Positions 5,161 through 61,084 of a stretch of DNA of 64,000 nucleotides are shown here, one piece after another. The stretch lies in contig NW_027362761.1 of NCBI RefSeq assembly GCF_046119375.1, positions 819,640,001 to 819,704,000 of the forward strand, given 5' to 3'. Numbering within the stretch: the stretch's first letter is position 1; each line of letters begins with the position of its first letter. The translations under genes and the position numbers were made by a program. Source of the stretch: Phyllobates terribilis (Eukaryota). The notes beneath the pieces were generated by a model. It was not told where the DNA came from. It saw only the letters and a list, made by a program, of their open reading frames with translations, and ran no database searches.

Positions 5161-6367
5161 TCCCACTCACACACCACCTCCTCATTTCGCCCCCTATCTG
5201 TTGGTGTACCCCAAGGTTCAGTTCTAGGACCCCTGCTCTTTTCCTTCTACACCTTCGGCCTGGGACAGCTCATAGAGTCTCATGGCTTTCATTATCACCT
5301 CTATGCTGATGACACACAGATCTACCTCTCTGGACCTGATATCTCCTCCCTACTAACAAAAATCCCACAATGTCTGTCCGCTATTTCATCCTTCTTCTCT
5401 GCTAGATTCCTAAAACTTAATATGGAAAAAGCCGAATTCATCATCTTTCCACCATCTCACTCAACCCCCCCACCTGACCCATCTATCAAAGTCAATGGCT
5501 GCTCACTCACCCCAGTCCCACAAGCTCGCTGCCTCGGGGTAACCCTGGACTCTGAGCTCTCCTTCAAACCACATATCCAAGCCCTTTCCACTTCCTGCCG
5601 ACTCCAACTCAAAAATATCTCCCGGATCCGCACATTCCTCACCCACAAATCTGCAAAAACACTAGTACACGCCCTCATCATCTCCCGCCTCGACTACTGC
5701 AACCTCCTGCTCTGTGGCCTCCCTGCCAACACTCTCGCACCCCTCCAATCTATCCTAAACTCTGCTGCCGGACTAATCCACTGGTCACTCCTCTATTCCC
5801 CAGCCTCTCCTCGCTGTCAATCCCTTCACTGGCTCCCCATTGCCCAGAGACTCCAGTTCAAGACCCTAACCTTGGGATACAAAGCCATCCAAACCTGTCT
5901 CCCCCATACATCTGTGACCTAGTTTCCCGGTACTTACCTGCATGCAACCTCCAATCCTCACAAGATCTCCTTCTCTACTCCCCTCTTATCTCCTCCTCCC
6001 ACAATCGCATACAAGATTTCTCCCGTGCATCCCCCCTACTCTGGAAATCTCTACCCCAACATATCAGGCTCTCGCCTTCTGTGGGAACCTTCAAAAGGAA
6101 CCTGAAGACCCACCTCTTCTGACAAGCCAACAACCAGCAGTAACCATTGCTCCACCATACCGCTGCACGACTAGCTGTATCCTCACCTACTGTATCCTCA
6201 CCCATCCCTTGTAGAGTGTGAGCACTCGTGGGCAGGGTCCTCGCTCCTCCTGTACCAGTCACTGACTTCTATTGTTCAAAATTATTGTAATTGTTGGTGC
6301 TATGTATATCCCTTTCACATGTAAAGCGCCATGGAACTAATGGCGCTATAATAATAAATAACAATAA
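5161..6367 (+). mobile_element. 5'-truncated L2 (CR1 group) LINE: reverse transcriptase C-terminal half and 3' tail
   Basis: Reads [13 protein letters not shown]...LYADDTQIY...LDYCN. A 1-bp frameshift lies near 5890 and a stop follows KTHLF. It ends in a gcgccat...atggcgc stem-loop plus an (aat)n tail. Confidence 0.93.
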
Positions 6368-8957: not shown

Positions 8958-9726
8958 GTATGCAATCATAGTGGATACTTCGATCTGTGAAGGAACGCTA
9001 TGCAAAAAACGGTAGGATGCTTTCAGCTAAGACTATTTGCTAAGTTGCTTAATGTTTTCATTTTAGATGCACTGGATAACTTAATAATAGCAGCACAGGT
9101 AACTAAAAGACTATGGTAATGGCAGTTTAAGGGTATGTGCACACCTTGAGTATTTGATTGCAGAAATACGCAGCCTCAAAAAAACATTGCCTTTTTGCTG
9201 CATGTTTTGCCTGTGTTTATTCAGTGCAATTAATGGGTGAAAAACGCAGGAAAAAACGCACAGAGAACTGACATACTGCAGATTATTTTCTGCACCAAAT
9301 TTGCAAGTCAAAAATACTCCACGTGTGCATGACACTTCAGGTTTCTCACTTTGCTGGCATCAGGTTTTGTCACAAACACGCGCAGGAAAAAAAAAGCAAC
9401 AAAAACGCACCAAATCTGCAATGTGTTCACATACCCTAAAAGGTAACTACTTGTGTACATTAGGCATTTTTCACACTGATGTCATGTTCATTGAGAACAT
9501 TCCCGGTGTTTTCTGTACAAGGGATGGCAACCACAAGACTAATAATTGCACAATATATAAAGAGAACTTCTGGCTGTAAGACAGGCGCTTACTGTTAGCT
9601 GAATAATGTGAAAACATTTCAATGGATGATGATGTTATTTCTGTGAAAACGTCATTCAGATTCACAAATGGTAAGTGCAAGAGAGGAGAGTAATAAGGGA
9701 GCGTCTATGAGAGACTGGTGACTTAC

Positions 9727-11333: not shown

Positions 11334-12957
11334 CAGTACAGACCAAAAGTTTGGACACACCTTCTCATTTAGATTTTTCTGTATTTTCATGACTATGAAA
11401 ATTGTACATTCACACTGAAGGCATCAAAACTATGAATTAACACATGTGGAATTATATACTTAACAAAAAAGTGTGAATCAACTGAAAATATGTCTTATAT
11501 TCTAGGTACTTCAAAGTAGCCACCTTTTGCTTTGATGACTGCTTTGAACACTCTTGGCATTCTCTTGATGAGCTTCAAGAGGTAGTCACCGGAAATGGTC
11601 TTCCAACAATCTTGAAGGAGTTCCCAGAGATGCTTAGCACTTGTTGGCCCTTTTGCCTTCACTCTGCGGTCCAGCTCACCCCAAACCATCTCGATTGGGT
11701 TCAGGTATGGTGACTGTGGAGGCCAGGTCATCTGGCGTAGCACCCCATCACTCTCCCTCTTGGTCAAATAGCCCTTACACAGCCTGTAGGTGTGTTTGGG
11801 GTCATTGTCCTGTTGAAAAATAAATGATGGTCCAACTAAACGCAATCCCGATGGAATAGCATGCCACTGCAAGATGCTGTGGTAGCCTTGCTGGTTCAGT
11901 ATGCCTTCAATTTTGAATAAATCTCCAACAGTGTCACCAGCAAAGCACCCCCACACCATCACACCTCCTCCTCCATGCTTCACGGTGGGAACCAGGCATG
12001 TAGAGTCCATCCGTTCACCTTTTCTGCGTCGCACAAAGACACGGTGGTTGGAACCAAGGATCTCAAATTTGGACTCATCAGACCAAAGCACAGATTTCCA
12101 CTGGTCTAATGTCCATTCCTTGTGTTCTTTAGCCCAAACAAGTCTCTTCTGCTTGTTGCCTGTCCTTAGCAGTGCTTTCCTAGCAGCTATTTTACCATGA
12201 AGGCCTGCTGCACAAAGTCTCCTCTTAACAGTTGTTGAAGAGATGTGTCTGCTGCTAGAACTCTGTGTGGCATTGACCTGGTCTCTAATCAGAGCTGCTG
12301 TTAACCTGCGATTTCTGAGGCTGGTGACTCGGATAAACTTATCCTCAGAAGCAGAGGTGACTCTTGGTCTTCCTTTCCTGGGGCGGTCCTCATGTGAGCC
12401 AGTTTCTTTGTAGCGTTTGATGGTTTTTGCAACTGCACATGGGGACACTTTCAAAGTTTGCCCATTTTTTCGGACTGACTGACCTTCATTTCTTAAAGTA
12501 ATGATGGCCACTCGATTTTCTTAATTAGCTGCTTTTTTCTTGCCATAATACAAATTCTAACAGTCTATTCAGTAGGACTATCAGCTGTATATCTACCAGA
12601 CTTCTGCACAACACAACTGATGGTCCCAACCCCATTTACAAGGCAAGAAATCCCACTTATTAAACCTGACAGGGCACACCTGTGAAGTGAAAACCATTTC
12701 CGGTGACTACCTCTTGAAGCTCATCAAGAGAATGCCAAGAGTGTGCAAAGCAGTCATCAAAGCAAAAGGTGGCTACTTTGAAGATCCTAGAATATAAAAC
12801 ATATTTTCAGTTGTTTCACACTTTTTTGTTAAGTATATAATTCCACATGTGTTAATTCATAGTTTTGATGCCTTCAGTGTAAATGTACAATTTTCATAGC
12901 CATGAAAATACAGAAAAATCTTTAAATGAAGTGTGTCCAAACTTTTGGTCTGTACTG
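11334..12957 (-). mobile_element. Tc1/mariner DD38E (Intruder-type) copy 1; transposase frameshifted at about codon 9
   Basis: TA|CAGTACAGACC...GGTCTGTACTG|TA with about 266-bp TIRs. The true ATG at 12546 is 35 nt from the GTG that opens the ORF-track frame. WSDESK, QDNDPKH and NPIE give 38 residues between D and E. Confidence 0.95.
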
Positions 12958-15665: not shown

Positions 15666-18412
15666 CTGCGGATTAATAGGGAGATCATTAATACCTATAA
15701 GTACAATAGAAAACATGAACCATAGATTAGTTAGGTAAAAATGACCATATAGTTAGCAAAGAAAGCGGTGCAGAAATCTTCATTATGACAAACACCAGTG
15801 TAGGACATTTTTTATGCCTTATGCCATATTTTAATGTTTTCACCAGCCATGCAAGGAGAACTAGAAAAACAAAACCTGACACGATATGGATCTTATACTC
15901 ACAGGAATACTTAAAGGTGGTGACCATACACATGAAACATCAACTAAATGTTGCCGATGCCTGTCAGTAATTTACTCACCTCTTCCTGCTAAGAACACAT
16001 ACACACTAGGCTGAGTCCATTGTGGCCGTTTATGGCAGAGTTGGGACACAGCCAGCAGCTAATTAATGTATATGGATTCATATCAGGTTATACATTTAGG
16101 TTTAGCGTATACGCCAAAAAGTACACGATAAACATGCCTGAGGAGCCTCATTAGTCAAATGGAGACCAAAAGAGTGTTCTTCAGACCTCCATCTGACTGG
16201 AGGAGGTCAGCGTATTACAAAAAATAAAAGGCATGGAATAGTGTAGTAGATTGTGCTATGCCATCCATAGGACTCACTTAGAAAGCAAAGGTATACTTTT
16301 TTTTCATATTGAGTCAATGGGTATGCGTTTTCATGGTGTTAAATGGATAGCATTTGATCGTATGGGTTGTCAATGCCTGTTATTGATGTCTAAGAGTGGC
16401 ATCTATCACACTAAAAGGTGTTCTCCAAGGGTAAGACATTGATGATCTATTTGTAGGATAGGTTATCAATATCAGATTGGTGGAGGTCCAACACCCAGCA
16501 CCCACCCACCTGATCACTCTGCACTAGTGATGAGCGAACGTGCTTGGATAAGGTGTTATCCGAGCAGGCTCAATTCCTAACAGAGTATCTTCAGAATGCT
16601 CGGAAAATATGTTTGCGTCGCTACGGCTGCATGTCTCGCAGCTGCTCGCCAGCCGCAACACACGAAGGGATTGCCTGTTTGTTAGGCAATCCTTCCAAGT
16701 TCGTGATTCGAACATATATTCCGAGCACTCCGAAGATACTCGGCTAGGACTAGAGCGTGCACCCAAACATTGAATGCGCAGCTCCAGTCAGTGTAGTGGC
16801 TGCACTTCAGCCATAACCTTCTGTGATCCTCCAGTGAAAGGTTTCACTTGTCCCAACAGCTGCAAGCACAAGCACACAGCCCTTCACTATGCCGAGAAAG
16901 GTCTACAGCTCTTTTTTTAATTTGTACCAAGCAGAATAACATTACAGACTATAAATACAATTACATAATGCAATCCTGCCAGAAAAAGCTTTCTTTACTG
17001 AACGAAGGCTAAGGAATGATGGCATTTGGCATCAGAATCAATAACCGTCTCCTACTGTATAAATAGGGGAAAAGCTCCAGCACTCCGCAATCACTCTACT
17101 ATAGCAATTATTATTTTTCTATTTTAAGTCCAAGAAGCTTTTTTTTTTATTCACACTTAGCCAAAAGCTAACGCCTTATGCCCATACACAATAAGCTGAT
17201 TGCTCCGCCAAGGGCTCTCTCTTCTGACCCCGGAATTCTCGGCAGAGACCTCCTGTGTCCTCTATGAGAGCGTCGTTACCTTTGACGGTGGCTTATGTCC
17301 TGAAGAACAAACGGATCGTCCAGCAGAAAATCAACGAGTCTGGATCCTTTTCCCTTCCCACCCCATATCACCTATTGATATATTATAGACGGTCAGCTGA
17401 TTCCATCAAGATCGGCAAGATTGGCTGACAAGTGTAAGAGGGCCTTTTGAGGCAGAGAATATTTTGGCCCTACGGACATTTTTTTTCCTTTTTCCTCTTT
17501 CCATTCTGACAGTTATACTCAAGATGCACTATAGGAACCATTTTTTGGTACATATACATTGATGTTTAAATAGTAACCACACTTTTTTTTTATACAACAG
17601 TAGAAGTGTTGATATTTACTACTAAAAGAAAATGTCTCTTTCTCCTCTTAACTGTCACATTTTGTCTCTAGCACTGATTCACTCTCTAAAACTACTCAAA
17701 TCTGTCTACAAATCTGTCTGCAATAAAGAATCAGATTACACTGGCTGGCTATAAAAATCTATGGAAAGGAGAAGCTGGCTGTAGACAGAAGTCACAAGAA
17801 GAAACTGCTATGACTTTTAATACAGAGGGAATAAGACCTCATACGAATGTCCATTATTCTTTCATGTGTTCCATCAGTGTTTGTCACAGATATAAGACGT
17901 ACCTGTAGCAAACTCGGACAAAGTACAGCCCATGGGTAACATGTGGCCCTAAGGATGTTCCGATGCGGCCCGCAGACGGGACAGTAAAAGGGCTGAATTC
18001 AGGAGTGCCACACACCATGCGCCGCCCCTGCTCAGTGTGTCACTTTCACTGGTATCTCCATCCTGGGAATGCAGATACCAATGAATACAATGATGGAACA
18101 GGGATCAGTCAGCTCCCTCCCCCATCACCGAGCCTCTGCAACAGAAAATGTGCACTGAAAAAAATAAAAATCAGTTTTTCAAGTATGATAAAAAAAATTA
18201 GCCTCTGAGCGATACCCGATTGTTAGAAATTTCGCATACAAGTCATATAATGGCCAGGAATATACAGAAGAAAAGCAGGTCATCTAGTTTTTTTTGTTTT
18301 CTGGCATCCACTGATCATCTTATTAGAGCCATAATCCACCACCCGATCCTTCCTACCAAAGCCATCAAGGACATCACTATACGCATGAAATGGTTGGTGG
18401 GTTAAACATGAA

Positions 18413-18733
18413 AGGGCATCTGTCAGTAGGATCAACCCTCCTAAGCCGTCTATATGGTCATGTAGGAAGCTGAATAAAAGGATATCTTGGTATCTGTAAT
18501 CCGATGTCTTATTTCAGAGAAATCCACGTTTTTCTTATTGTAAGTAAGGTGTTAAGATCAATAGGCCAAACATAGATCCTGAGAATCTGCTTCAGAAATA
18601 TAAGAAAAGGCGTAGATTTCTCTAGAATAAGACATTGGATCGCAGATTTCAAGGTATCACTTTATTCAGCTTCCTATGACCTACATGCCCATATAGATGG
18701 CTTAGAAGGGGTGATCCTACTGACAGATGCCCT
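18413..18733. mobile_element. Palindromic T2-like MITE
   Basis: AGGGCATCTGTCAGTAGGATCA...TGATCCTACTGACAGATGCCCT|TTAA. Confidence 0.8.
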
Positions 18734-18770
18734 TTAATGTATGATACCAGTCTAAAATATTTACCTTAAA

Positions 18771-19380
18771 AGGAAACCTTATCACGAGGTTTGTCCTGTA
18801 TGAAGTAAGGCCAGTACCTGCAAACCCTCATATACAGCATTCTATAATGCTGTATATAAGCCCCCAATGTGGCCTGCAAGACAAGAGAAAGTTCTTTTAT
18901 TATACTCACCTGGTCCGATGGGCGTCTTGATCCGGCGCCTCCGCTCTTCTTGCTTCGCGTAGGTGATGCTCCCTACCTCGTCCTGCATTGCCCTCCTGCA
19001 CAGGCACACTTCTCTGCCTTGTAAGGGGCAGAGCAAAGTACTGCAGTGCACATGTGCAGAAAAAGGCCACAGAGACCTGGCGCATGCGCACAGCGGTACT
19101 TTACTCTGCCCGCAACAGGGCAGAGAAGTGCGCAGGAGCACGATGCAGGACTCTGTGTGGATGACATAGGATGCATCATCCACATGAAGCAGAGGAGGAT
19201 GGCATTGCAAGAAGAGAGCCAGGACCAGCGACACCCATCAGACCCGACTGCCCCGTAGATCAGCATACTAAAAGGACTTTTTCTTGTCTTGCAGGCTGGA
19301 TTGGGGGCATATAAACAGCATTATAGATTGCTGTAAATCAGCCTTACCTCATACAGGACAAATCTAGTGATAGGTTTCCT
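18771..19380. mobile_element. Palindromic T2-like MITE
   Basis: AGGAAACCTTATCAC...GTGATAGGTTTCCT|TTAA with long imperfect inverted arms. Confidence 0.8.
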
Positions 19381-20535
19381 TTAATCGCTCTCACAAGCAA
19401 CACTGCTTATCTTGGGGAATATAGTACAATTGTATATTGATCCTGTCCGATGAGGGCAAAAAGTGTTGTGCAGAGTCGTCTGTGCAGGTCTATCTGAAGC
19501 TGGGTTACTTCTGTGCGCTGCCATATGTACAGAGCCAATCTCCTATGTAAGCAATGCTCTGATGAAGAAAAGCTCTATATACATACAGCGCCCTATAGAG
19601 AGACAAAACATGGCTTTGGTACACAATGGAAGCGCAATACGACAGTGAGTGGGAGGCCTTAAAGGGGTTGTTCAAAACCATGATATCAATGACCAAGTCA
19701 TAGTATAACATGCAAAAAGGAGAATGAACAGGCTTTTATAGGGCGCTGCTGATCACACTAAAAAGATGGAAAACATAGCAAAGAACCATAAAAAATAGGA
19801 ACTTATAATATATACGTGAGTGGCGATTCTTCATCACTCACAGAGACGCCACAAAATCAGGTTGGCCGGTTAGTTTTTCTTTATCAAGCTATTCTTGGAA
19901 GAGGTGATCCATATCAGATAAGAGAGGGTCCAAAACCCAGACCCCTATGATCACCTGCTCTCAGCTCCGGTGGTGGCCAGATGTACACAGTGAACAGAAC
20001 AGATCCCATATCCAGCACCTGGGATCAGCCACAGCAGTGACCGAAGCGGGGTCTTCTACTCTGCACACATCCAGAGCTGATGGCTAGTGCTCGGTGGGGG
20101 CAAGGTGTGGAACCCCTCAGGTCTGATAATGATGACCTATCCTAAAGGCAGGACATCGATATCGTAGTCCTGAACAACCCCTTATACTTATTGCCGGCAC
20201 AGGGGCCCCCTCTCCTCACTTTACAGTGGAACACTCTGGCATAGCCCCAACCCTAGGCCCCCAGGTAGTGAGGGATCCCCCATGTATGTGCTTGATTCCC
20301 CGCCCCTATGATGAATGACACCGTGCCAAGGCATCCGCAGTGTGGGTGAAGCTATGCAGACCCATGTACCAGCCACCCAGGCGAATACATGGGGTCTCTG
20401 ACAGAGGCAGAGTGCAGCCCCCTCAGTGCAGTGCCAGGACAAAACATGGCGGCCACACACCTCATAAAGCCGAGATCGGACACCTCCGTGACGTCATGTA
20501 ATGTATAGGAAGCAGCCACAGGCTGCAGCACTCAC

Positions 20536-20604
20536 AGTCTCGGCTCCAGACGGCTGCACCCCGGAGCTCTGCTGACCTCCCATCACTCCCCTCAGGAAAT
20601 TCAT
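20536..20604 (-). CDS. uso1: USO1/p115 coding exon 1 (MNFLRGVMGGQQSSGVQPSGAET)
   Basis: The minus strand reads ttcaccATG AAT TTC CTG AGG GGA GTG ATG GGA...GCC GAG ACT|gtgagt. This matches the vertebrate USO1 N-terminus MNFLRGVMGGQ. 69 nt, phase-0 donor. Confidence 0.97.
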
Positions 20605-20859
20605 GGTGAAGGCTGCTGTCAGGTGAGAACGTGCCGGAGGATCGGGAATACAGAGCCCCAGCACTGGACACTCAGGCCCCGGTGCTGTGAAGACGCGGCG
20701 GGGTGAAGGGTGAAGAAGGGGCGGAGGGTGATGTCAGGGTACACGGCTGAGGAGTGATGACGTGGGCATCCAGGAATGAGACCAGGAAGCGGTCGGCGAC
20801 TAGCGCATGCGCGGAGGACGTGGCGGTGACGTGTAGGGTGCAGACTTGTGTCACATGAC

Positions 20860-20912
20860 CTCTCTGTACAACACACGGCTGTGGTCCTGTAGCTCCTCTC
20901 AGTAGTGTCCAG
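20860..20912 (+). other. Putative non-coding first exon of the divergent (plus-strand) transcript; start approximate
   Basis: Lies immediately downstream of the promoter motifs and ends at the strong donor gtccag|gtaggtga. Confidence 0.55.
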
Positions 20913-21110
20913 GTAGGTGAGGGCTGCGGGACAGTCGGTCACATAGCGACATGTGTCGCTCTACGGCAATTCTCAGGAGAGCCCCACTAGTAACTAGTCA
21001 CTGGAATGGAATTACTGCAGTGAGGGGGATAACGAGGCCCAGGTATAACTGAGAATACAGCTGGTTTGTTTTCTTTAGTAGTAATTACGTTATATACTGT
21101 ATATATAGAT

Positions 21111-21155
<45 letters not shown>

Positions 21156-21536
21156 TACCAGCTTTATGATGATTTCATGGCTTTTTAATGTTTTTCTTAA
21201 TGCCTTTTTAGGGAATTGCCCAGTTTTGCACCAGTCCTGTTCGCAGCACCAACACTCAGAAGAGTGGGCGGAGCGTCGTGGGGAGAGATTTAAAAGAGCG
21301 CCCCCGACAGTCACCATAATGTATAACACAGAAGTGCTATAAATTATTACAGATGTCCGGGGTATAATTTACATCACAAAAGTGGCATAAATATGATGAT
21401 TCTGTCGGCTGCTCCGTCACTGGCACCGCCCGCTCTTCAAACTGGTGGAGCTGGCTGAGACTTGTGTATAGACACGAAAAGGTGAATTCTATCAAAAGTG
21501 AACAATCAGAGCTATGTGTAATCTTTTTATATTATA

Positions 21537-22468
21537 TATTACTGTGTTATTGTCTATAACCCCGCAGCCGTATTACTGTGTTATTGTCTATCTAATCCCG
21601 AAGCCGTATTACTGTTATTGTCTATAACCCCGCAGCCGTATTACTGTGTTATTGTCTATAACCCCGCAGCCGTATTACTGTGTTATTGTCTATCTAACCC
21701 CGCAGCCGTATTACTGTGTTATTGTCTATCTAACCCCGCAGCCGTATTACTGTGTTATTGTCTATCTAACCCCGCAGCCGTATTACTGTGTTATTGTCTA
21801 TCTAACCCCGCAGCCGTATTACTGTGTTATTGTCTATAACCCCGCAGCCGTATTACTGTGTTATTGTCTATCTAACCCCGCAGCCGTATTACTGTGTTAT
21901 TGTCTATCTAACCCCGCAGCCGTATTACTGTGTTATTGTCTATAACCCCGCAGCCGTATTACTGTGTTATTGTCTATAACCCCGCAGCTGTATTACTATG
22001 TTATTGTCTATAACCCCGCAGCCGTATTACTGTGTTATTGTCTATAACCCGCAGCCGTATTACTGTGTTATTGTCTATAACCCCGCAGCCGTATTACTGT
22101 GTTATTGTCTATAACCCCGCAGCCGTATTACTGTGTTATTGTCTATAACCCCGCAGCCGTATTACTGTGTTATTGTCTATAACCCCGCAGCCGTATTACT
22201 GTGTTATGGTCTATAACCCCGCAACCGTATTACTGTGTTGTGGTCTATAACCCGCAGCCGTATTACTGTGTTATGGTCTATAACCCCGCAGCCGTATTAC
22301 TGTGTTATTGTCTATCTAATCCCGCAGCCGTATTACTGTGTTATTGTCTATCTAATCCCGCAGCCGTATTACTGTGTTATTGTCTATCTAATCCCGCAGC
22401 CGTATTACTGTGTTATTGTCTATCTAATCCCGCAGCCATATTACTTTGTTGTCTATCTAATCCCGCAG
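21537..22468 (+). repeat. 33-36 bp minisatellite (about 26 units) made of a repeated 3' splice-site-like sequence
   Basis: Unit ccgtattactgtgttattgtctat(ct)aaccccgcag. The last unit ends at 22468, 26 nt before the ATG at 22495. Confidence 0.95.
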
Positions 22469-22494
22469 AATTCTCATCCAGTGTGAACTGCATA

Positions 22495-23955
22495 ATGGCG
22501 AGGAAAAACCCATTCAACCTTGTTGGCATAGCAGACCTACTAGTTGTAGAGTGCAGTCGCTGGTCCCGAATTCTTCCACAATGTAGCCCGTTACCAGGAG
22601 GCGCTCCCATTAATGCATGGCTCCGTGGCCTGTTGTCTCTACAGATTGGGCGAGAATTACAGCGAGAGGGAATGATTCGTGATGGAGACGTGCGTGAAGG
22701 CATTATGGCCATCAGTGCTGTAGGAGGGGCGCTAAAGATGGACCCCACTAAGTACCTTAACCAAGTGTCAGTGAATGAGCTGATCAGACAGTCAGCAGGT
22801 GCTGCCGCAGTCGCATTAGATGACATAAGTGTCCCCGTGGAGGTAGATATTTGCACCATCACAAATGCCTGGCCTGCAGACTTCCCTGTGCAACCAGTTA
22901 GCAACATCATTTCATTTGACCCTGCCCACTGGGCTGCTTGGTTACTGACTCTTGTGCCTGGAAGTACTGGATTAGTGGCCACATGTCAAGCCTCTAATGC
23001 TCCAGCCGGAATTAAACCAGTGCCTGTCAACGGGGAACTTCATCCTTGGGCAGTGGCAATGTACATTGATGTTAACATCGTGACTGGGGCAGCTATGAAA
23101 CAACGCGTTGAGGATGACTTGGCCATCTTGGAATTGTTATTGATCATTGCTCTCTTTTCCCGTCGATCGGCTGCACGTCATGGTCAGATCATCAACTTAA
23201 TAGTGTTAGGGATTACAATTGTGACCAGTGGTGGGCATATCACAAATGGACAAATTCGGAAGATTATTAAACAATCTAATGTAGATACAGTTGACTTCAC
23301 CCGAGAGATGGTCCTGAAGGGATGGGACTTTTTCTCCATGCATTGTTTGCATGGGATGACAACAGGAGATGACTTCAGACAATTGTTCCAACTGCTTGAA
23401 GCTACCGCCCGACCAATTTCCCTGTGTCTAGCATCTTTGTGCCAACAAACTGAGCTCAAGATGTTAACTCCGATTGTGACAACTGTTCGAGCGATCAAAG
23501 ATTTCCAAGACTTCCCATGGCAAGAACTCTTTGATTTGATAGTTCTTCAAACAGGGACTGATGAATTGGGACCTATTCAGCAGTATGGGGCATATATAGC
23601 CACCCCTCCATCAGCACCCCAGCCAGTCAGCACAGCTGTTACTGATGCTCCTCCTGGAGGTCACTGGGCAGGGTGGGAATTGATTCAGAGAGAGCGTCCC
23701 CAAGGCCACATGAAGATCTCCAGCTTTGTTAATAGCCTATATGCTGCCATTCAACTAACAATCCAGGTTGGTGGTAACATGGCTTTGAGACAGTATAAAG
23801 TTTTGCAGAACCATACTGTGCCACTTAAGGACATCATTGATAACTGGATTGTGCGGTATGTACAAGCTCGAGCAGTTGCTCGAGGAGTTGCTGCTGTCAG
23901 CCCTGCAGTCGCTGCTAGTGCTGGACTCCAAGCCATACGAGCTTTGCACTTGTAG
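22495..23955 (+). CDS. Intact 486-aa ORF, endogenous viral element resembling a chuvirus-like (Jingchuvirales/Mononegavirales-type) nucleoprotein
   Basis: Non-repetitive, stop-free and intronless, with Kozak cataATGG. Motifs LASLCQQTELKMLTPIVTTVRAIKDFQDFPWQEL (23428-23530) and SFVNSLYAAIQLTIQVGGNMALRQYK (23722-23799) resemble, from memory, the QQxxxxxLTxxxxIxRAIxxYPDFPW and SxxxNLxxxAxxLxxxxGxxxLxxY blocks of chuvirus N. No cellular protein is recognised. The family assignment is by motif recognition only. Confidence 0.72.
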   Translation: MARKNPFNLVGIADLLVVECSRWSRILPQCSPLPGGAPINAWLRGLLSLQIGRELQREGMIRDGDVREGIMAISAVGGALKMDPTKYLNQVSVNELIRQSAGAAAVALDDISVPVEVDICTITNAWPADFPVQPVSNIISFDPAHWAAWLLTLVPGSTGLVATCQASNAPAGIKPVPVNGELHPWAVAMYIDVNIVTGAAMKQRVEDDLAILELLLIIALFSRRSAARHGQIINLIVLGITIVTSGGHITNGQIRKIIKQSNVDTVDFTREMVLKGWDFFSMHCLHGMTTGDDFRQLFQLLEATARPISLCLASLCQQTELKMLTPIVTTVRAIKDFQDFPWQELFDLIVLQTGTDELGPIQQYGAYIATPPSAPQPVSTAVTDAPPGGHWAGWELIQRERPQGHMKISSFVNSLYAAIQLTIQVGGNMALRQYKVLQNHTVPLKDIIDNWIVRYVQARAVARGVAAVSPAVAASAGLQAIRALHL

Positions 23956-24021
23956 TGATGCAGTTACTCCTCATGCGGACTAGTTGGCATCCTGCAAGGA
24001 AATCTGTAGTCTGTGTTGGTA

Positions 24022-24206
24022 ATTAAAGAGTGTACCCAAGTGTTATCAATAGTGCCTTCTAAAGTACATAAGAGGCAGTATCTACTCACCGATGTATTTG
24101 TAAGTTATGTCATGCCCTTCTTCTCTTGTTCAAATGCATGTATTAGAAATCATACTACACCACTGCACAATTTCTGTTTTTAAGAATTTAAAAAAATAAA
24201 AAAAAA
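24022..24206 (+). terminator. Candidate poly(A) signals of the viral-like gene
   Basis: ATTAAA at 24022-24027 and AATAAA at 24195-24200 within an A-rich tract (24190-24206). Confidence 0.45.
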
Positions 24207-27200
24207 GAAGACATTGTCTGCGACTATTTTGGAATTGCAATTTGGCACAAAACCAAAAAGCTGCCAAACTGCAGACAGGTCATGTGCAACATGCGTTGAA
24301 GTCTGTGGAATCAATGACCTCCCCATTGACTAATATTAAATGATATGTTATATATGTTGCTGAATGTACGTGACTTACATTGAATTTTATCCTGGAAAGA
24401 TCGCTTGTGATCAGCGACCAAAAAGGAAGCAGGTTTTGAAAAGCTATATCTTGATCTCACTACTTTGCTTTTTAAATGGTTGTCCAGGATTAAATCAGTA
24501 TTCTTTTGGCCCTTTTTTTTGTGAATTATGATGGTGTGCGATGTGCGCACTGTCATGACTCCCCTGTATGCTCTGTGTGAGTGTGCTGCTACATGGCCGT
24601 ATTTATGCCATTTGCATTCTTGTGATCATGTGCCAATTAGTCTCATCACCCGGCTTCTCGCAATACAAGGGAATCTGTGTGACACATCCTAGTGCTGTCT
24701 GTTTTGTTTTTTCGGACAGATACTGACCCATAGAGTGTCATAAAGCCATTCACGCATCAGTTTTAAAAACAGATTCTTGTCTCCGGCCCATGAGACTTAG
24801 ACAATGTCTTGTTCTCATCCGTTTGTGGATCAGACTCCGCTAAGGGATAAAAAACGTTCAGTCTACCTGCTTCTGTGAAGGAATAGACTGCTGCAAATAA
24901 GATGATACATGAGTAAAAAATGATCAATTATTTTCTCTCAGATTGAAACAGTCATGCAGATGTGTGAATGAAGATGTTCTCCCCCATTATTCCCTGTTTG
25001 GTCCATATTTCTGATTACTGGCTACAGCATTCCTGTGTATTATATCTCTAAGGCAAGTAATTGGCTGCAGTGGTCACACATGCTGTAGTCATGACAACAA
25101 AGACCAGGGCAGCAGCAAAGACATGGGTGGGTATTGGTGTGTCTGTTATTTTCTATGGTGTTGTCAGGTCATCAAATCTGTATGCCCACTCTACAGGATA
25201 GATCATCCATAGAAGATTGATGGAAGTCCAACATCCAGCACGTCCGCCTATTTAACTGTTATTTGCTCTGACGGCTGTCAAATGGAAACACTTTGGACGG
25301 AACTCCTGCGCTGCTCCATTCATAGTGTACTGCACTGGCTGCTTCCAGTTACTGCAGCGCAGCTTCTATGTACTATTCTCAGTAGCAGTGCTGCAGCACC
25401 GAGCAAAGGCCGCTACACTTTGTACTGAACTGCGTTTAGGAATTCCATTTGGCTGATTGGTGGGGAGTCAGACCCCCACCGATGTGTTTCTGATAACCCA
25501 TCCACAGGATAGGTAATCAAATCCCTATGCCCAAAAAAAACCTTTTAAACTCGTTTTGATACCCAACATACATGTATAACACATGCTGAGTGCAGGGGTC
25601 TGGAGTAGGCTCAGGTACTCAGCCAGCTGCACACATAGCAGGCGCTGGCTAGGTTACACAGCCAGCATCCACCACTACATCAGTGAATGGATCAAGCGTC
25701 TATCGCTGCTTTTTAAACGGAACTCTGCAACTGATTCTGTTGAGGGAGGGCAATGGCCCTTCACGGTTGACCAAGTGAGTGTCAAATTATTATGTTATAA
25801 GGTTGATTGCAATCCACAGAAAACCAAACGGAGACAGTGCTCTGTATGGGAGGATTCAGAGAATCTCTAATCCCGTTTATTTCTACTTAGCATTTTATAT
25901 TGTTTTGAATATATCGATAGCCAGTCACCTACAGCCGTACTACAGTATTACAGGCTTAGGCCAATGTTAGTGCAATTATTACGGAAACACACATATGGTC
26001 ATGTATCATCGCTAGTTCGGCGCATGATGGAAATTTACAAGGTTACCCATCCTGGCTCAGACTAGTCAGATAACGGGAGCAGGGTGTCTCACAGAATGTT
26101 CTTGTGAGAAAAGGTTAGTGTGGGAAAAGATGCATGAGAAAAGAAGGAAAGAATGTATGTTATGCAAAGAGTATAATAACATGATTTTGAATCAGGCAGA
26201 CAAAATGGAGTTGCTATAGCATGAGTATCACTATGTCCTTTACAATTCTTTCTGGCAAACCCACAGGCAGCCTGAATCAGTCTGGCTGAATGACTGCTGC
26301 TGTGAATGTTTTACTCTGAAACATTGCCACATTTCAGAAAAAATATACGTTGAAAAGTCAGCCGGGGTATATGCACTTCAGATGACTAGCCCAAGACCGA
26401 ACCTTGGAGTCTTCACGTGGCCCTGCTACTTATGAGTGACAGGTCTCTCCGTATATACACAAGGAGAGACCTGTCAGTGTATGGGAGCCGGGCGGAAAGA
26501 AGCTGCTGGGGACCTCCCTTGTAATAGTCATCCGAGACACATAATCCCCAGCCAAATTTTCTCTGAATTGCTGCAATGTTTTAGAGTAAAACATACATGA
26601 CTGCCATAACGTAGCCAGCATCTCATCCATTGGACAGCATGAATCAGCTGATAGGTTATCTTCATTCTCCTTAAATGGTAGAGTCAATTACACCAGCATT
26701 TACATGGAACAACCCCCCTGGCACGCTGATGCAAGGACTCCACATACCCAATAGATTACTGGCCGATCATCAGGATACAGGTACCTCTCCTGACTACCCC
26801 ATACATATTAGACTCGACATCGCTATGTTCAGCCGACATTAGTCTGTGTATCCGGGCCTCAACCCTTGCATCTCCTATTGGTTTTAGAAAAGTGCTGTTG
26901 GGTCAGAGGACTTTCCAAGTATGGCTTTCTCTTTAAACACCGCAGGGCAGAAATCATACAGCCAGTGTCTGATGCATGCTGCTCATGGATCAGGCAGCAA
27001 GTATCTCAGGTTCACTTTAAAGTGGTTTATCAATCCCTTAAAGCACAGTTAATTGGCCCATAATGTAAAAAATTGTGTGGCTGAACGACACTCTGCGTTA
27101 TGCAATGACATTGGGAAGCAAAAGGGGGACATGATCACCAGTAACTATGGAATGGTGAAGAACTAAAAAGGCAAGTATATTATACATTTTTGTTTACAGA

Positions 27201-28633: not shown

Positions 28634-30263
28634 CAGTACAGACAAAAAGTTTGGAAACACCTTCTCATTTAAAGATTTTTCTGTATTTTCATGACTATGA
28701 AAATTGTACATTCACACTGAAGGCATCAAAACTATGAATTAACACATGTGGAATTATATACTTAACAAAAAAGTGTGAAACAACTGAAAATATGTCTTAT
28801 ATTCTAGGTTCTTCAAAGTAGCCACCTTTTGCTTTGATGACTGCTTTGCACACTCTTGGCATTCTCTTGATGAGCTTCAAGAGGTAGTCATCGGAAATGG
28901 TCTTCCAACAATCTTGAAGGAGTTCCCAGAGATGCTTAGCACTTGTTAGCCCTTTTGCCTTCACTCTGCGGTCCAGCTCACCCCAAACCATCTCGATTGG
29001 GTTCAGGTCTGGTGACTGTGGAGGCCAGGTCATCTGGCGTAGCACCCCATCACTCTCCTTCTTGGTCAAATAGCCCTTACACAGCCTGGAGGTGTGTTTG
29101 GGGTCATTGTCCTTTTGAAAAATAAATGATGGTCCATCTAAACGCAAATCGGATAGAATAGCATGCCGCTGCATGATGCTGTGGTAGCCATGCTGGTTCA
29201 GTATGCCTTCAATTTTGAATAAATCCCCAACAGTGTCAACAGCAAAGCACCCCCACACCATCACACCTCCTCCTCCATGCTTCACGGTGGGAACCAGGCA
29301 TGTAGAGTCCATCCGTTCACCTTTTCTGCGTCGCACAAAGACACGGTGGTTGGAACCAAAGATCTCAAATTTGGACTCATCAGACCAAAGCACAGATTTC
29401 CACTGGTCTAATGTCCATTCCTTGTGTTCTTTAGCCCAAACAAGTCTCTTCTGCTTGTTGCCTGTCATTAGCAGTGGTTTCCTAGCAGCTATTTTGCCAT
29501 GAAGGCCTGCTGCACAAAGTCTCCTCTTAACAGTTGTTGAATAGATGTGTCTGCTGCTAGAACTCTGTGTGGCATTGACCTGGTCTCTAATCTGAGCTGC
29601 TGTTAACCTGCGATTTCTGAGGCTGATGACTCGGATAAACTTCTCCTCAGAAGCAGAGGTGACTCTTGGTCTTCCTTTCCTGGGGCGGTCCTCATGTGAG
29701 CCAGTTTCTTTGTAGCGCTTGATGGTTTTTGCAACTGTACTTGGGGACACTTTCAAAGTTTTCCCAATTTTTCAGACTGACTGACCTTCATTTCTTAAAG
29801 TAATGATGGCCACTTGTTTTTTTTTACTTAGCTGCTTTTTTCTTGCCATAATACAAATTCTAACAGTCTATTCAGTAGGACTATCAGCTGGGTATCCACC
29901 AGACTTCTGCACAACACAACTGATGGTCCCAACCCCATTTGTAAGGCAAGAAATCCCACTTATTAAACCTGACAGGGCACAGCTGTGAAGTGAAAACCAT
30001 TTCTGGTGACTACCTCTTGAAGCTCATCAAGAGAATGCCAAGACTGTGCAAAGCAGTCATCAAAGCAAAAGGTGGCTACTTTGAAGAACCTAGAATATGA
30101 GACATATTTTCAGTTGTTTCACACTTTTTTGTTAAGTATATAATTCCACATGTGTTAATTCATAGTTTTGATGCCTTCAGTGTGAATGTACAATTTTCAA
30201 AGTCATGAAAATACTGAAAAATCTTTAAATGAGAAGGTGTGTCCAAACTTTTGGTCTGTACTG
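28634..30263 (-). mobile_element. Tc1/mariner DD38E copy 2; nonsense codon at position 26
   Basis: TA-flanked with the same TIRs as copy 1. ATG at 29849, TGA at 29772-29774, remainder open (28797-29756). Confidence 0.95.
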
Positions 30264-30331: not shown

Positions 30332-33300
30332 TGTAATGCACACGCCCGGACTGACTGGCGTGTGCGTGTATATGTAGTGATTCCAATGGACCGTACCGGA
30401 GATTGAATGCCTGGAGGGGCGTAACTAAGTATCCACCCGATTTGACCAAGGTCGCACGACGGCATACGACGCCAGTGCACCAAGGAGGGACCGAGCAGAG
30501 GGACCAGGTGCTACTCCAGGTCAGTCCCTGGACACGGCTGTTGACCCACACCGGGGAATACAGGAACAGGCAGGTTAGGCTGGCACACAGACTGGTGGGT
30601 ACATGCAGACACGGCAGGTATGCAGACGGGTGGATGCTGGCAAGCACGACTGTTATGCAAACAGGGAGGTACTGGCAGGTATGCAGGCAGGTTGATGTTG
30701 GTAAGCATTACTGGTATGCAGGCAGGGAGGTACTGGCAGGTACGACAGGTTGGAGCACAGAGTGGATAGGACACAGTACAGACTGGGACTCAGGGAGAGA
30801 ACCGCAGATGCGGTGGACAAACACCAGAGGGAGGCCGTCCGGAGCGGTGAGCAAGAGCAGAGCAAGACGAGGCCACCTGGAGCAGCGAGCAAAGGGTCAG
30901 AGCAGAGCGAGACTGCCGGAGCGGCGAGCAAAGGGTCAGAGCAGAGCGAGACTGCCGGAGCGGCGAGCAAAGGGTCAGAGCAGAGCGAGACTGCCGGAGC
31001 GGCGAGCAAACGGTCAGAGCAGAGCGAGACTGCCGGAGCGGCGAGCAAAGGGTCAGAGCAGAGCGAGACTGCCGGAGCGGCGAGCAAAGGGTCAGAGCAG
31101 AGCGAGACTGCCGGAGCGGCGAGCAAAGGGTCAGAGCAGAGCGAGACTGCCGGAGCGGCGAGCAAAGGGTCAGAGCAGAGCGAGACTGCCGGAGCGGCGA
31201 GCAAAGGGTCAGAGCAGAGCGAGACTGCCGGAGCGGCGAGCAAAGGGTCAGAGCAGAGCGAGACTGCCGGAGCGGCGAGCAAAGGGTCAGAGCAGAGCGA
31301 GACTGCCGGAGCGGCGAGCAAAGGGTCAGAGCAGAGCGAGACTGCCGGAGCGGCGAGCAAAGGGTCAGAGCAGAGCGAGACTGCCGGGGCGGCGAGCAAA
31401 GGGTCAGAGCAGAGCGAGACTGCCGGGGCGGCGAGCAAAGGGTCAGAGCAGAGCGAGACTGCCGGGGCGGCGAGCAAAGGGTCAGAGCAGAGCGAGACTG
31501 CCGGGGCGGCGAGCAAAGGGTCAGAGCAGAGCGAGACTGCCGGGGCGGCGAGCAAAGGGTCAGAGCAGAGCGAGACTGCCGGGGCGGCGAGCAAAGGGTC
31601 AGAGCAGAGCGAGACTGCCGGGGCGGCGAGCAAAGGGTCAGAGCAGAGCGAGACTGCCGGGGCGGCGAGCAAAGGGTCAGAGCAGAGCGAGACTGCCGGG
31701 GCGGCGAGCAAAGGGTCAGAGCAGAGCGAGACTGCCGGGGCGGCGAGCAAAGGGTCAGAGCAGAGCGAGACTGCCGGGGCGGCGAGCAAAGGGTCAGAGC
31801 AGAGCGAGACTGCCGGGGCGGCGAGCAAAGGGTCAGAGCAGAGCGAGACTGCCGGGGCGGCGAGCAAAGGGTCAGAGCAGAGCGAGACTGCCGGGGCGGC
31901 GAGCAAAGGGTCAGAGCAGAGCGAGACTGCCGGGGCGGCGAGCAAAGGGTCAGAGCAGAGCGAGACTGCCGGGGCGGCGAGCAAAGGGTCAGAGCAGAGC
32001 GAGACTGCCGGGGCGGCGAGCAAAGGGTCAGAGCAGAGCGAGACTGCCGGGGCGGCGAGCAAAGGGTCAGAGCAGAGCGAGACTGCCGGGGCGGCGAGCA
32101 AAGGGTCAGAGCAGAGCGAGACTGCCGGGGCGGCGAGCAAAGGGTCAGAGCAGAGCGAGACTGCCGGGGCGGCGAGCAAAGGGTCAGAGCAGAGCGAGAC
32201 TGCCGGGGCGGCGAGCAAAGGGTCAGAGCAGAGCGAGACTGCCGGGGCGGCGAGCAAAGGGTCAGAGCAGAGCGAGACTGCCGGGGCGGCGAGCAAAGGG
32301 TCAGAGCAGAGCGAGACTGCCGGGGCGGCGAGCAAAGGGTCAGAGCAGAGCGAGACTGCCGGGGCGGCGAGCAAAGGGTCAGAGCAGAGCGAGACTGCCG
32401 GGGCGGCGAGCAAAGGGTCAGAGCAGAGCGAGACTGCCGGGGCGGCGAGCAAAGGGTCAGAGCAGAGCGAGACTGCCGGAGCGGCGAGCAAAGGGTCAGA
32501 GCAGAGCGAGACTGCCGGGGCGGCGAGCAAAGGGTCAGAGCAGAGCGAGACTGCCGGGGCGGCGAGCAAAGGGTCAGAGCAGAGCGAGACTGCCGGGGCG
32601 GCGAGCAAAGGGTCAGAGCAGAGCGAGACTGCCGGGGCGGCGAGCAAAGGGTCAGAGCAGAGCGAGACTGCCGGGGCGGCGAGCAAAGGGTCAGAGCAGA
32701 GCGAGACTGCCGGGGCGGCGAGCAAAGGGTCAGAGCAGAGCGAGACTGCCGGGGCGGCGAGCAAAGGGTCAGAGCAGAGCGAGACTGCCGGGGCGGCGAG
32801 CAAAGGGTCAGAGCAGAGCGAGACTGCCGGGGCGGCGAGCAAAGGGTCAGAGCAGAGCGAGACTGCCGGAGCGGCGAGCAAAGGGTCAGAGCAGAGCGAG
32901 ACTGCCGGAGCGGCGAGCAAAGGGTCAGAGCAGAGCGAGACCGCCTGGAGCGGCGAGCAAAGGCAGAGCAGGCAAGAACCGCTGGAGCGGTGAGCAAGGC
33001 AGAGCAGAGGGGACAGGGCTCTGTTAACACGGAGCAGACAGGAAGGGAAAGGCAGAACCAGATACCCACAGGGTACTTGCAGTGAAGTAGCGAGTGGACC
33101 ACAAACTCACAAACGGAAGTACAGTGACAACGAGCAAGAGTTAGGTACGAGTTCAGACTCTACAGAAAAAGGAAAGATATGGGCGTAGAGAGAAATGGGA
33201 AACAGGCTGGAAGATGGTTAGGGCAGGAACAGACACTGGGAAAGGACACAGACAACAGATCTAGGTATGCGGCCCCTAGAGGGCAGAAGGAACAGGCTAA

Positions 33301-35766: not shown

Positions 35767-37358
<1,592 letters not shown>

Positions 37359-52277: not shown

Positions 52278-53519
52278 CAGTACAGACCAAAAGTTTGGAC
52301 ACACCTTCTCATTTAAAGATTTTTCTGTATTTTCCTGACTATGAAAATTGTACATTCACACTGAAGGCATCAAAACTATGAATTAACACATGTGGAATTA
52401 TATACTTAACAAAAAAGTGTGAAACAACTGAAAATATCTCTTATATTCTAGGTTCTTCAAAGTAGCCACCTTTTGCTTTGATGACTGCTTTGCACACAAT
52501 TGACATTCTCTTGATGAGCTTCAAGAGGTAGTCACCGGAAATGGTCTTCCAACAATCTTGAAGGAATTCCAAGAGATGCTTAGCACTTGTTGGCCCTTTT
52601 GCCTTCACTCTGTGGTCCAGCTCACCCCAAACCATCTCGATTGGGTTCAGGTCTGGTGACTGTGGAGGCCAGGTCATCTGGCGTAGCACCCCATCACTCT
52701 CCGTCTTGGTCAAATAGCCCTTACACAGCCTAGAGGTGTGTTTGGGGTCATTGTTCTGTTGAAAAATAAATGATGGTCCAACTAAACGCAAACCGGATGG
52801 AATAGCATGCCGCTGCAAGAAGCTGTGGTAGCCATGCTGGTTCACTATGCCTTCAATTTTGAATAAATCCCCAACAGTGTCACCAGCAAAGCACCCCCAC
52901 ACCATCACACCTCCTCCTCCATGCTTCACGGTGGGAACCAGGCATGTAGAGTCCATCTGTTTACCTTTTCTGCGTCGCACAAAGACACGGTGGTTGGAAC
53001 CAAAGATCTCAAATTTGGACTCATCAGACCAAAGCACAGATTTCCACTGGTCTAATGTCCATTCCTTGTGTTCTTTAGCCCAAACAAGTCTCTTCTGCTT
53101 GTTGCCTGTCTTCAGCAGTGGTTTCCTAGCAGCTATTTTACCATGAAGGCCTGCTGCACAAAGTCTCCTCTTAACAGTTGTTGAAGAGATGTGTCTGCTG
53201 CTAGAACTGTGTGGCATTGACCTGGTCTCTAATCTGAGCTGTGAAGTGAAAACCATTTCCGGTGACTACCTCTTGAAGCTCATCAAGAGAATGCCAAGAG
53301 TGTGCAAAGCAGTCATCAAAGCAAAAGGTGGCTACTTTGAAGAACCTAGAATATAAGACATATTTTCAGTGGTTTCACACTTTTTTGTTAAGTATATAAT
53401 TCCACATGTGTTAATTCATAGTTTTGATGCCTTCAGTGTGAATGTACAATTTTCATAGTCATGAAAATACAGAAAAATCTTTAAATGAGAAGGTGTGTCC
53501 AAACTTTTGGTCTGTATTG
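52278..53519 (-). mobile_element. Tc1/mariner DD38E copy 3, internally deleted, inserted in the right palindrome arm
   Basis: Same TIRs, TA-flanked. A junction at about 53238 (ctgagctg|tgaagtg) removes the start codon and DNA-binding domain. Confidence 0.93.
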
Positions 53520-57100: not shown

Positions 57101-58181
57101 CGGCCCGTCAACACTACACCCAGCTCTACACCTTCACTGTGGCCTGTCCACATTACACCCAACTCTACACCTTCACTGGGGCCTGTCCACACTACACCCA
57201 GCTCTACACCTTCACTACGGCCCGTCCTCACTACACCCAGCTCTACACCTTCACTGTGGCCTGTCCACACTACACCCAGCTCTACACCTTCACTACGGCC
57301 CCTCCACACTACACCCAGCTCTACACCTTCACTGTGGCCCGTCCACACTACACCCAACTCTACACCTTCACTGGGGCCTGTCCACACTACACCCAGCTCT
57401 ACACCTTCACTACGAGCTGTCCACACTACACCCAGCTCTACATCTTCACTACGGCCCGTCCACACTACACCCAGCAATACACCTTCACTGTGGCCCGTCC
57501 ACGCTACACCCAGCTCTACACCTTCACTGTGGCCCGTCCACGCTACACCCAGCTCTACACCTTCACTGTGGCCCGTCCACGCTACACCCAGCTCTACACC
57601 TTCACTGTGGCCCGTCCACGCTACACCCAGCTCTACACCTTCACTGTGGCCCGTCCACGCTACACCCAGCTCTACACCTTCACTGTGGCCCGTCCACGCT
57701 ACACCCAGCTCTACACCTTCACTGTGGCCCGTCCACGCTACACCCAGCTCTACACCTTCACTGTGGCCCATCCACACTACACCCCGCTCTACACCTTCAC
57801 TGTGGCCCGTCCACACTACACCCCGCTCTACACCTTCACTGTGGCCCGTCCACACTACACCCCGCTCTACACTTTCACTGTGGCCCATCCACACTACACC
57901 CCGCTCTACACCTTCACTGTGGCCCGTCCACACTACACCCAGCAATACACCTTCACTGTGGCCCGTCCACACTACACCCCGCTCTACACCTTCACTGTGG
58001 CCCGTCCACACTACACCCCGCTCTACACCTTCACTGTGGCCCGTCCACACTACACCCCGCTCTACACCTTCACTGTGGCCCGTCCACACTACACCCAGCT
58101 CTACACCTTCACTGTGGCCCGTCCACACTACACCCCGCTCTACACCTTCACTGTGGCCCGTCCACACTACACCCCGCTCTA

Positions 58182-60349: not shown

Positions 60350-60800
60350 GTGAGGCGGAAGCCTCTGCCCAGCGTCCAGCCTCGTGGATAGCGCCGCCCT
60401 AATACGCGGTGACGTCAACGGGGTGTGTCGTTTTTCCTTACAGTACGCCTGTGGGGCACGTCCTCGCGCGAAGGCTGCTGGGTTCTGATCTCACGGAGGT
60501 CGCGTAATTGACGGAACGCTGCGTCACTCTTATGACGTCACAGTCACGACACCATATTCCCCGCCCTGCAGCTGACGCCGCCCGTAACCCGAGGGTGAAC
60601 ACAACAATAACAACGTGTTTCTGTCGGCAGTTGGGGCCCGGGGCTCCTCCTGCTTCTGGGGATAGCGGCCGCGTCACCGGCTGTGGTCGAGGTTAGTGCG
60701 ACACTGGATCGCTAGCAGCGGGGAGGCCATTGTGTGCTCGGCGCTGACTGCGGCTCCCAGCGGGTGAGCTCGGGCTGTGTCCGCGGCTGTTACTGAGGGT
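60350..60800 (+). promoter_or_regulatory. CpG-island promoter and probable non-coding first exon ending at 60763 (possibly g3bp2)
   Basis: CpG-dense and not repeat-like, with two TGACGTCA CRE sites (about 60410 and 60533), a GCCATT motif and the donor cagcgg|gtgagc. Gene identity is inferred only from mammalian G3BP2-USO1 head-to-head synteny. Confidence 0.5.
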
Positions 60801-61084
60801 TACAGACTAACATGGAGCTGTGCTGGGACCTATGTCCGACACGACCTGGATATCGTACTGTCACAGGCAGTCAGCCTGCAGGTAGTGATGTCACTGGTGC
60901 CCCCCGCATGCTCAGGCTGTAGGGGGCTCATGGGGAGCTCAGTGCAGGGACCCCACAGCTCTATCAGGACTGTAGTATGGGGTGAGCTTGGGCTGAGAGC
61001 ACTCCTGTCCTGTAGATGGGTCATATATGTCTGATTGCTGGGAGACCCCTGATTACCAGAGCGGGGACCCCACTGCTCCCCCAT

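Follow-up and report, generated by a model that had tools for sequence, protein, structure and literature searches.

The closest described precedent for a viral gene attached to a host first exon is that of the elephant elements laEBLN-1/2, which captured a copy of such an exon (PMC4982594). There, a negative-strand RNA virus contributed the nucleoprotein (N) gene that is now the open reading frame (ORF) of a second or last exon, transcription runs through a non-coding exon 1 of the host, which supplies the donor, and splice variants occur. The same features are found for an ORF of 486 codons near the uso1 gene of the poison frog Phyllobates terribilis, in a 64,000-nucleotide stretch of contig NW_027362761.1 (called hereafter the window; coordinates are positions in it). 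The elephant elements are bornaviral, lie behind a duplicated TMEM106B promoter and exon 1, and come with target-site duplications and with data on protein and selection (PMC4982594), whereas the frog ORF is chuvirus-like, uses the live uso1 CpG island, with no duplication found, and encodes a predicted protein. We consider it fairly probable that this ORF is a spliced, polyadenylated chuvirus-like nucleoprotein gene driven from the uso1 island, likely an alternative last exon of the neighbouring g3bp2 gene and likely kept as a protein that would act as a decoy.

Other known systems resemble the locus in part. The squirrel itEBLN, an endogenous N of full length, has been proposed as a block to its cognate virus, but it shares 77% identity with an extant virus and has been tested, whereas the nearest non-frog relatives of the frog protein are 28-41% identical to it (itEBLN as cited in PMC11521997 and PMC4982594). 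Retrocopies and domesticated retroelement genes are likewise expressed through upstream host exons, or from head-to-head CpG promoters less than 2 kb away, and gain new 5′ untranslated exons; such piggybacking concerned about 11% of the expressed retrocopies in one study (PMC4772013, PMC3670739). These derive from host mRNAs or retroelements in mammals, in contrast to the insert of a non-retroviral RNA virus in an amphibian. Chuvirus-like N inserts are known from teleosts, amphibians, squamates and marsupials, some with ORFs above 400 aa (PMC11521997, PMC11089739), and vertebrate ones also from bioRxiv 2024.11.25.625296. The rows of chuvirus N endogenous viral elements (EVEs) that were examined have a piscichuvirus N as best match, and no promoter wiring is described in the available parts of these two sources (PMC11521997, PMC11089739); the frog protein has 16% identity to the Wenling fish chuvirus N in a structural comparison. 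No poison-frog or Engystomops row was present among the EVE supplement tables examined (PMC11521997 in part). No report of the locus was found in the literature and supplements searched, files 9 and 12 of PMC11521997 and the full EVE table of PMC11089739 lying outside this search. The filovirus-derived element that PMC11089739 names in Ranitomeya imitator could conceivably be the present locus, labelled differently.

Eight runs from two studies contained the ORF, having been selected for it, and four of them were aligned to positions 17500-27000. They were judged to be RNA assemblies because they showed splice joints, an A tail, mostly empty intronic bins and splicing of uso1. Transcript strand was assigned from the GT..AG ends and the A tail. 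In 4/4 runs the ORF was spanned by one contig, running from 22466/22467 to 24212 or further, and most intronic bins were without depth. A GT..AG joint, 21042>22469, was seen directly in two of the four runs (X5 and X8), and in X8 one contig of 1904 nt consisted of 20884-21042 joined to 22469-24213. The contigs were spliced and polyadenylated, as the processed mRNA of a co-opted gene should be. The exons and the ORF are as follows.

22495..23955, plus strand: intact, single-copy ORF of 486 aa, with a predicted jingchuvirus (chuvirus-like) nucleoprotein fold
22469..24213, plus strand: terminal exon, made of a 26-nt leader, the ORF and a 3′ untranslated region of 258 nt; a single contig end to end in 4/4 runs
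20884..21042, plus strand: longer first exon, ending at donor CAG/GTATAA (21042/21043); direct joint to 22469 in X5 and X8
20850..20912, plus strand: short first exon, ending at donor CAG/GTAGGT; seen indirectly, with a start between 20783 and 20884
21212..21481, plus strand: minor cassette exon of 270 nt; joints 21042>21212 and 21481>22469 in X5, pieces in X3

The original prediction had placed the ORF in a two-exon host gene expressed from the uso1 island. A plus-strand transcript covering the ORF was indeed found in all four runs, and it is spliced from the island to 22469 in X5 and X8, with contigs reaching 20884. The two-exon structure held in that a first exon is spliced to the ORF exon, but at least two donors and the minor cassette are also involved (in X5, cassette depth was 7.6 versus 55.6 for skipping). 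We regard it as almost certain that the ORF transcript is made and spliced from the island. A start inside the dispersed repeat that follows the island was rejected, since the contigs reach 116 nt upstream of it.

The shared promoter region comprises two features.

~20551-21000, no strand: CpG island, head-to-head, common to uso1 and the plus-strand transcript; GC 0.59-0.63, CpG observed/expected 0.74-0.75
20536..20782, minus strand: uso1 exon 1, with its ATG at 20604; contig 5′ ends spread over 20729-20782

In 4/4 runs, RNA contigs spliced uso1 exon 1 at 20536 to the next uso1 exon, at about 15662. Divergent 5′ ends less than 1 kb apart lie on the island, uso1 contigs reaching 20782 and plus-strand contigs 20884, as in a bidirectional promoter. 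The segment 20780-21000 is single-copy, matching only itself in the genome. The viral-derived insert lies 1.6 kb downstream of this island, between uso1 and g3bp2, on a contig of 1.24 Gb. It consists of one viral gene (N alone) in a single copy with host flanks on both sides, as expected of a non-retroviral EVE made by LINE-1 from a viral mRNA.

Donor usage was then examined. The predicted donor, CAG/GTAGGT at 20912/20913, is present and was the best plus-strand donor in 20780-21500, with a score of 10.3 on a simple weight matrix; the other scores were 9.3 (20916), 8.8 (21481) and 5.7 (21042). The joint predicted from it was 20912->22469. The joint seen directly is instead 21042>22469, but three contig edges fit the use of 20912 indirectly. 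Contigs begin exactly at 20884 in both X5 and X8, whereas the uso1 5′ ends spread over 53 nt, and in the X3 contigs 22466 is preceded by one unmatched letter and 21210 by two. A graph model (k=31) of candidate isoforms was used to explain these contig edges. In this model, the 159-nt piece 20884-21042 arises only if 20912 joins an exon beginning with G, which is the case of the cassette, and CCAG-led pieces at either acceptor arise only if both donors feed that acceptor. Donor 20916, or a g3bp2 join alone, was rejected as the source of the 20884 edge, for which the model then predicts 20887 or 20883. Donor 20912 is very probably used. Short upstream pieces are presumably clipped as tips during assembly.

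The two donors give leaders of different coding content, and differ in their sequence context.

20951, plus strand: upstream ATG in the 21042 leader; its 69-aa frame overlaps the main ORF start out of frame
21006, plus strand: upstream ATG in the 21042 leader; 5-aa frame
21000..21534, no strand: dispersed, transposon-like repeat, which supplies donor 21042 and the cassette exon

The 69-aa frame of the 21042 leader overlaps the start codon, so that translation from this leader would drop. The leader made via 20912 has at most one upstream frame (16 aa), which ends before the ORF. Within the repeat, 21001-21090 had 33 other genome matches, and 21190-21540 gave 885 candidates, 40 of which were scored. 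Because donor 21042 lies in the repeat and 20780-21000 is single-copy, 20912 probably came first as a donor, and 21042 was added later.

The acceptor belongs to another repeated element, and the poly(A) signal to an A-rich tract.

21537..22468, plus strand: minisatellite with a unit of 34-36 bp, about 26 copies, 26.4 of which were counted over 21537-22450; its last, altered unit is the acceptor used
24186..24213, plus strand: A-rich tract holding AATAAA (24195-24200), single-copy; cleavage and poly(A) addition at 24213

As predicted, the acceptor ending at 22468 is used in RNA (22468/22469) and lies 26 nt before ATG 22495, which has A at -3 and G at +4. It is not, as had been supposed, the next strong acceptor after the donor: 21211/21212 lies before it and serves as an acceptor in RNA, and the minisatellite has 24 near-identical CGCAG contexts upstream of 22468. 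Every unit of this minisatellite ends with a branch-point-like CTAAC or ATAAC followed by CCCGCAG, which makes about 25 tandem acceptor look-alikes, of which the contigs use the last. The start of the X1 contig at CAG (22466) fits some molecules reading in from the array. The unit was not found in the other loci examined.

The two annotated gene models of R. imitator part five residues before the Met, near a second AG (22480-22481 here), and our guess from this position is that an older acceptor lay 13 nt further down than 22468. A LINE-like reverse-transcriptase fragment occurs at window 5422-5922. Read in antisense, it matches the N-terminal extension that the X1 gene model of R. imitator has, which suggests that in this species an upstream exon derived from a repeat is in use. 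The idea that this extension corresponds to the first exons described here was rejected, as it matches the repeat at window 5444.

Both predicted poly(A) hexamers follow the stop codon, ATTAAA at 24022 and AATAAA at 24195. Contigs ended at 24212-24213 in three of the four runs, 13 nt past AATAAA 24195, and X5 extended to 24294. Of the two 3′ ends proposed, the distal one (~24215) is therefore that observed, whereas for the proximal one (~24040, signal at 24022) no contig end was found nearby in the four runs. In X3 a non-templated A tail follows 24213, where the genome letters differ. Internal priming at the A tract was rejected, since the tail begins past the tract, after 24213. The tract, with 24190-24206 as its narrower limits, is possibly a remnant of the viral mRNA tail. 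No target-site duplication was detected around the insert, the best direct repeat (7/8 nt) being at chance level.

The nature of the protein was investigated by structure. A model built with a 39-row alignment reached a predicted local distance difference test (pLDDT) of 85 and a predicted template modelling (pTM) score of 0.81; the model made from six sequences had a pLDDT of 34. Against BFVD, 25 viral proteins matched at E<=0.001, with 10-18% identity, a best E of 7e-8 and TM scores of 0.4-0.5. They comprised 10 named chu-like or mivirus nucleoproteins, one qin-related, three unnamed and 11 proteins of other viruses, which we take to be Jingchuvirales. A chu-like N headed this list, and the model has the two-lobed helical fold of nucleoproteins. 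Among solved structures, the top 11 matches were all mononegavirus nucleoproteins, the best being Borna disease virus N (Z 8.3, root-mean-square deviation 5.5, 261 residues aligned). By sequence, a weak chain through one intermediate leads from the window ORF to P0037 (66 residues, E 5e-5) and from there to a Mos8Chu0 chuvirus protein (49%). Other comparisons gave little: the ORF had no match to Pfam or to PDB sequences, 10 relatives gave against Pfam one weak BDV_P40 match (E 0.014, below the cut-off), a profile found nothing meaningful among PDB sequences, Foldseek on PDB returned nothing at E<=0.001 (paramyxo- and pneumovirus N headed its list), the ESM Atlas held no usable match for the ORF or P0012, and a scan of IMG/VR yielded no locus. 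The earlier description of the ORF as viral-like agrees with this fold, and the ORF is predicted to derive from the nucleoprotein of a divergent chuvirus-like RNA virus.

A homolog search gave 35 proteins, from poison frogs, Engystomops, loach, hake, grouper, garter snake and cobra, and from further assemblies. A second search, made with a 14-row alignment, brought only the same six proteins, and no named piscichuvirus N was present among the 35 homologs (25 of them checked by name or source). The ORF has its closest relatives in Dendrobates, Ranitomeya and Anomaloglossus; the other poison-frog proteins are 74-81% identical to the window protein, that of Engystomops (tungara frog) 41%. The family suggests that a jingchuvirus lineage exists in fish, frogs and snakes, with only 10-18% identity to those described nucleoproteins that it matched. 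Six relatives (P0006, P0010, P0011, P0015, P0020, P0024) are genes annotated as 'uncharacterized' in loach, tungara frog, hake, garter snake, grouper and cobra, and several of them are near full length. Three others (P0012, P0013, P0014) are on contigs of 12.1, 4.7 and 10.9 kb; the 10.9- and 12.1-kb lengths presumably fit whole jingchuvirus genomes, and these three are possibly extant viruses from the lineage.

In a tree of 15 of the 35 proteins, fragments being left out, the five poison-frog proteins formed one clade (100/99) and were 71-91% alike, with Engystomops as sister (100/99). If the five copies are orthologous, the insert would be older than the aromobatid-dendrobatid split, which dates to about 40 million years. 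Three of the five proteins are full length. The truncated ones, in R. imitator and Anomaloglossus, end within a few residues of each other and leave the N-terminal lobe; the full-length protein of R. variabilis has 91% identity to that of R. imitator. Among the three full-length copies, 150 changes had accumulated, for which about eight stops are expected under neutrality, and none was seen (P ~3e-4). Columns conserved in the family also changed less at a 75% cut-off (19/101 versus 104/336, Fisher P 0.017; P 0.05 within residue type), and gaps were frame-preserving, at the protein level. The comparison suggests weak to modest constraint, possibly purifying selection, on the protein, and that the protein is made and selected is, in our estimate, rather more likely than not.

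The g3bp2 gene lies downstream of the ORF on the same strand. Its first coding exon is on the plus strand at L002:9037-9155, 9 kb beyond the window end, and is preceded by an island of its own.

60350..60850, plus strand: second CpG island, single-copy, with donor-like sites, about 12 kb before the g3bp2 first coding exon

This second island is the probable main promoter of g3bp2. The human upstream G3BP2 start, we believe, adjoins USO1. For human, two alternative G3BP2 promoters are on record (PMC13024974), and in cow G3BP2 is listed with an 81-kb 5′ extension to a bidirectional promoter, the partner gene not being named (PMC2688522). Whether the first exon described here is also the upstream non-coding exon of g3bp2 appears evenly balanced. 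Capture of the divergent uso1 transcript, as put forward in the original prediction, stands insofar as the transcript comes from the island, but it would probably be better understood as trapping of the g3bp2 upstream first exon.

The motif content of the uso1 island was compared with 3000 dinucleotide shuffles of it; P values are uncorrected and the motifs were chosen post hoc.

20803-20812, in the CpG island: NRF1 motif GCGCATGCGC, P 0.001, clearly above chance
20758, in the CpG island: TGACGTGG motif, P 0.03, marginal
20818, in the CpG island: ACGTGGC motif, P 0.09, marginal
20851, in the CpG island: TCACATGA (TCAYRTGA test), P 0.04, marginal

In addition, GACGTG occurred three times (P 0.013). 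The island is thus of the NRF1 type, as had been proposed, and the NRF1 site is positioned between the contig 5′ ends of uso1 and of the plus-strand transcript. The stress-type motifs fared less well: ACGTGGC and TGACGTGG are present, but the CACGTG E-box is absent from 20400-21100, with TCACATGA at 20851 in its place, and only NRF1 is clearly above chance. ACGTGGC is the consensus of the Golgi apparatus stress response element (GASE; PMC11926408), and USO1 is named among CREB3-regulated genes (PMC6616197). Induction of the ORF mRNA by Golgi or endoplasmic reticulum (ER) stress is, on these motifs, conceivable but doubtful.

A history that would account for the locus can be outlined. A viral mRNA would have been reverse-transcribed and inserted in a poison-frog ancestor; retro-insertion of an mRNA is proposed because the ORF has no intron and an A-rich tract is present at its 3′ end. 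The insert would have trapped the upstream non-coding first exon of g3bp2, so that the ORF would lie within intron 1 of the long form of g3bp2 and act as an early alternative last exon. The leader made via donor 20912 would be short and free of frames that overlap the ORF, and most translation would proceed from it, and the repeat-derived donor 21042 would add the overlapping upstream frame and damp translation. The protein would be kept as a decoy nucleoprotein against related viruses, by analogy with the squirrel itEBLN; this antiviral role is put forward tentatively. If the first exon is common to g3bp2, the insert also alters an antiviral stress-granule gene. The locus gives a rare base-by-base view of a non-retroviral viral gene turning into a host gene, by a route whose components are a live bidirectional housekeeping promoter, a strong island donor, a transposon-supplied donor and cassette, a minisatellite acceptor and an A-rich tract with its poly(A) signal. 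It would be a candidate co-opted chuvirus-like nucleoprotein in an amphibian, for which the natural truncations of related frogs are built-in comparisons.

Several observations weigh against the reading we favour, that of a nucleoprotein gene trapped behind a g3bp2 exon and kept. None of the runs is recorded as RNA, X1 and X3 have no first-exon contig at all, the joint 20912>22469 is on no contig of the four runs, and the unmatched letters of X3 are known by count and not by identity. The isoform seen directly is the one with an upstream frame overlapping the start codon. The g3bp2 contigs (X3, X5, X7, X8) break at 9063-9064, at words shared with g3bp1, and show no upstream exon. Orthology among frogs comes from the tree and not from synteny; two of the five proteins, those of R. 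imitator (P0003/P0008) and Anomaloglossus (P0004), stop near residue 300; the stop-count test is conditioned on survivors, and gives P 0.09 for the window branch alone; the column test at a 60% cut-off gives P 0.18 (37/154 versus 86/283); and at 15 family-wide basic columns the window protein has K/R at 10, another residue at four and a deletion at one. Some of these facts are also those expected if the ORF were a functionless viral fossil, expressed through landing behind an active promoter and open by luck or slow decay. Such a fossil would explain the two truncations, the protein divergence of about 20% between close genera with its weak column-conservation signal, the overlapping upstream frame, and splice sites taken partly from a repeat and a minisatellite. 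It fits poorly with zero stops where about eight are expected, with gaps that keep the frame, with the strong start context, and with two truncations at about one place, after the N-terminal lobe. We hold it to be unlikely.

The other alternatives concern the origin or use of the transcript. The insert may have taken a plain, unstable promoter-upstream transcript of uso1 that is unconnected with g3bp2, and stress induction would be inherited from the Golgi/ER elements of uso1. The transcript does start within ~150 nt of the uso1 5′ end, g3bp2 has a likely promoter of its own at 60350-60850, retrocopies are known to share head-to-head promoters (PMC4772013), and the GASE consensus and the CREB3 regulation of USO1 would suit such an origin (PMC11926408, PMC6616197). 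However, the island has in its unique sequence a strong donor on the strand of g3bp2, which suits an exon that was already there, the mammalian G3BP2 gene has a 5′ exon far upstream, at a bidirectional promoter (PMC2688522), and the stress motifs are only weakly above chance. This origin too is improbable, to about the same degree as the fossil. Less probable still is that the protein was co-opted for a cellular, non-antiviral job, as has been suggested for the elephant EBLNs, or that the locus acts through its RNA, upstream transcripts of g3bp2 being led to an early poly(A) site. The loss of several family-wide basic residues, the C-terminal loss tolerated in two species and the relocation of afrotherian EBLNs to the rough ER (PMC4982594) would agree with a new cellular role, and such transcripts would be terminated by the efficient poly(A) site that lies 49 kb ahead of the coding exon of g3bp2; yet the whole two-lobed fold is predicted with high confidence, a prediction that reflects the family alignment as much as this copy. 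The widest proposal, which we rate as a long shot, is that poison frogs domesticated the N of an undescribed vertebrate jingchuvirus lineage as a g3bp2 alternative last exon, the uso1 island switching between a stress-granule scaffold and a viral decoy. If so, the intact inserts that recur in frogs, fish and snakes would be traces of a widespread group of viruses overlooked by current EVE screens.

Further repeats were noted around the locus. Several equal-scoring copies of the 21000-21534 repeat lie ~50-70 kb apart at G000:C5:74.1-74.55 Mb, suggesting a large tandem segmental array. Transposase frames, which we take to be Tc1/mariner-like, occur at window 11495-12010, 28797-29468, 35972-37003, 52441-53256 and 58359-59375, and two of them, of ~340 aa, look intact. 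Long GC-rich minisatellites are found at 30634-33027, 55787-58258, 59656-60353 and 60830-63172, with stop-free frames of 600-800 codons; the last of them is directly behind the probable g3bp2 promoter.

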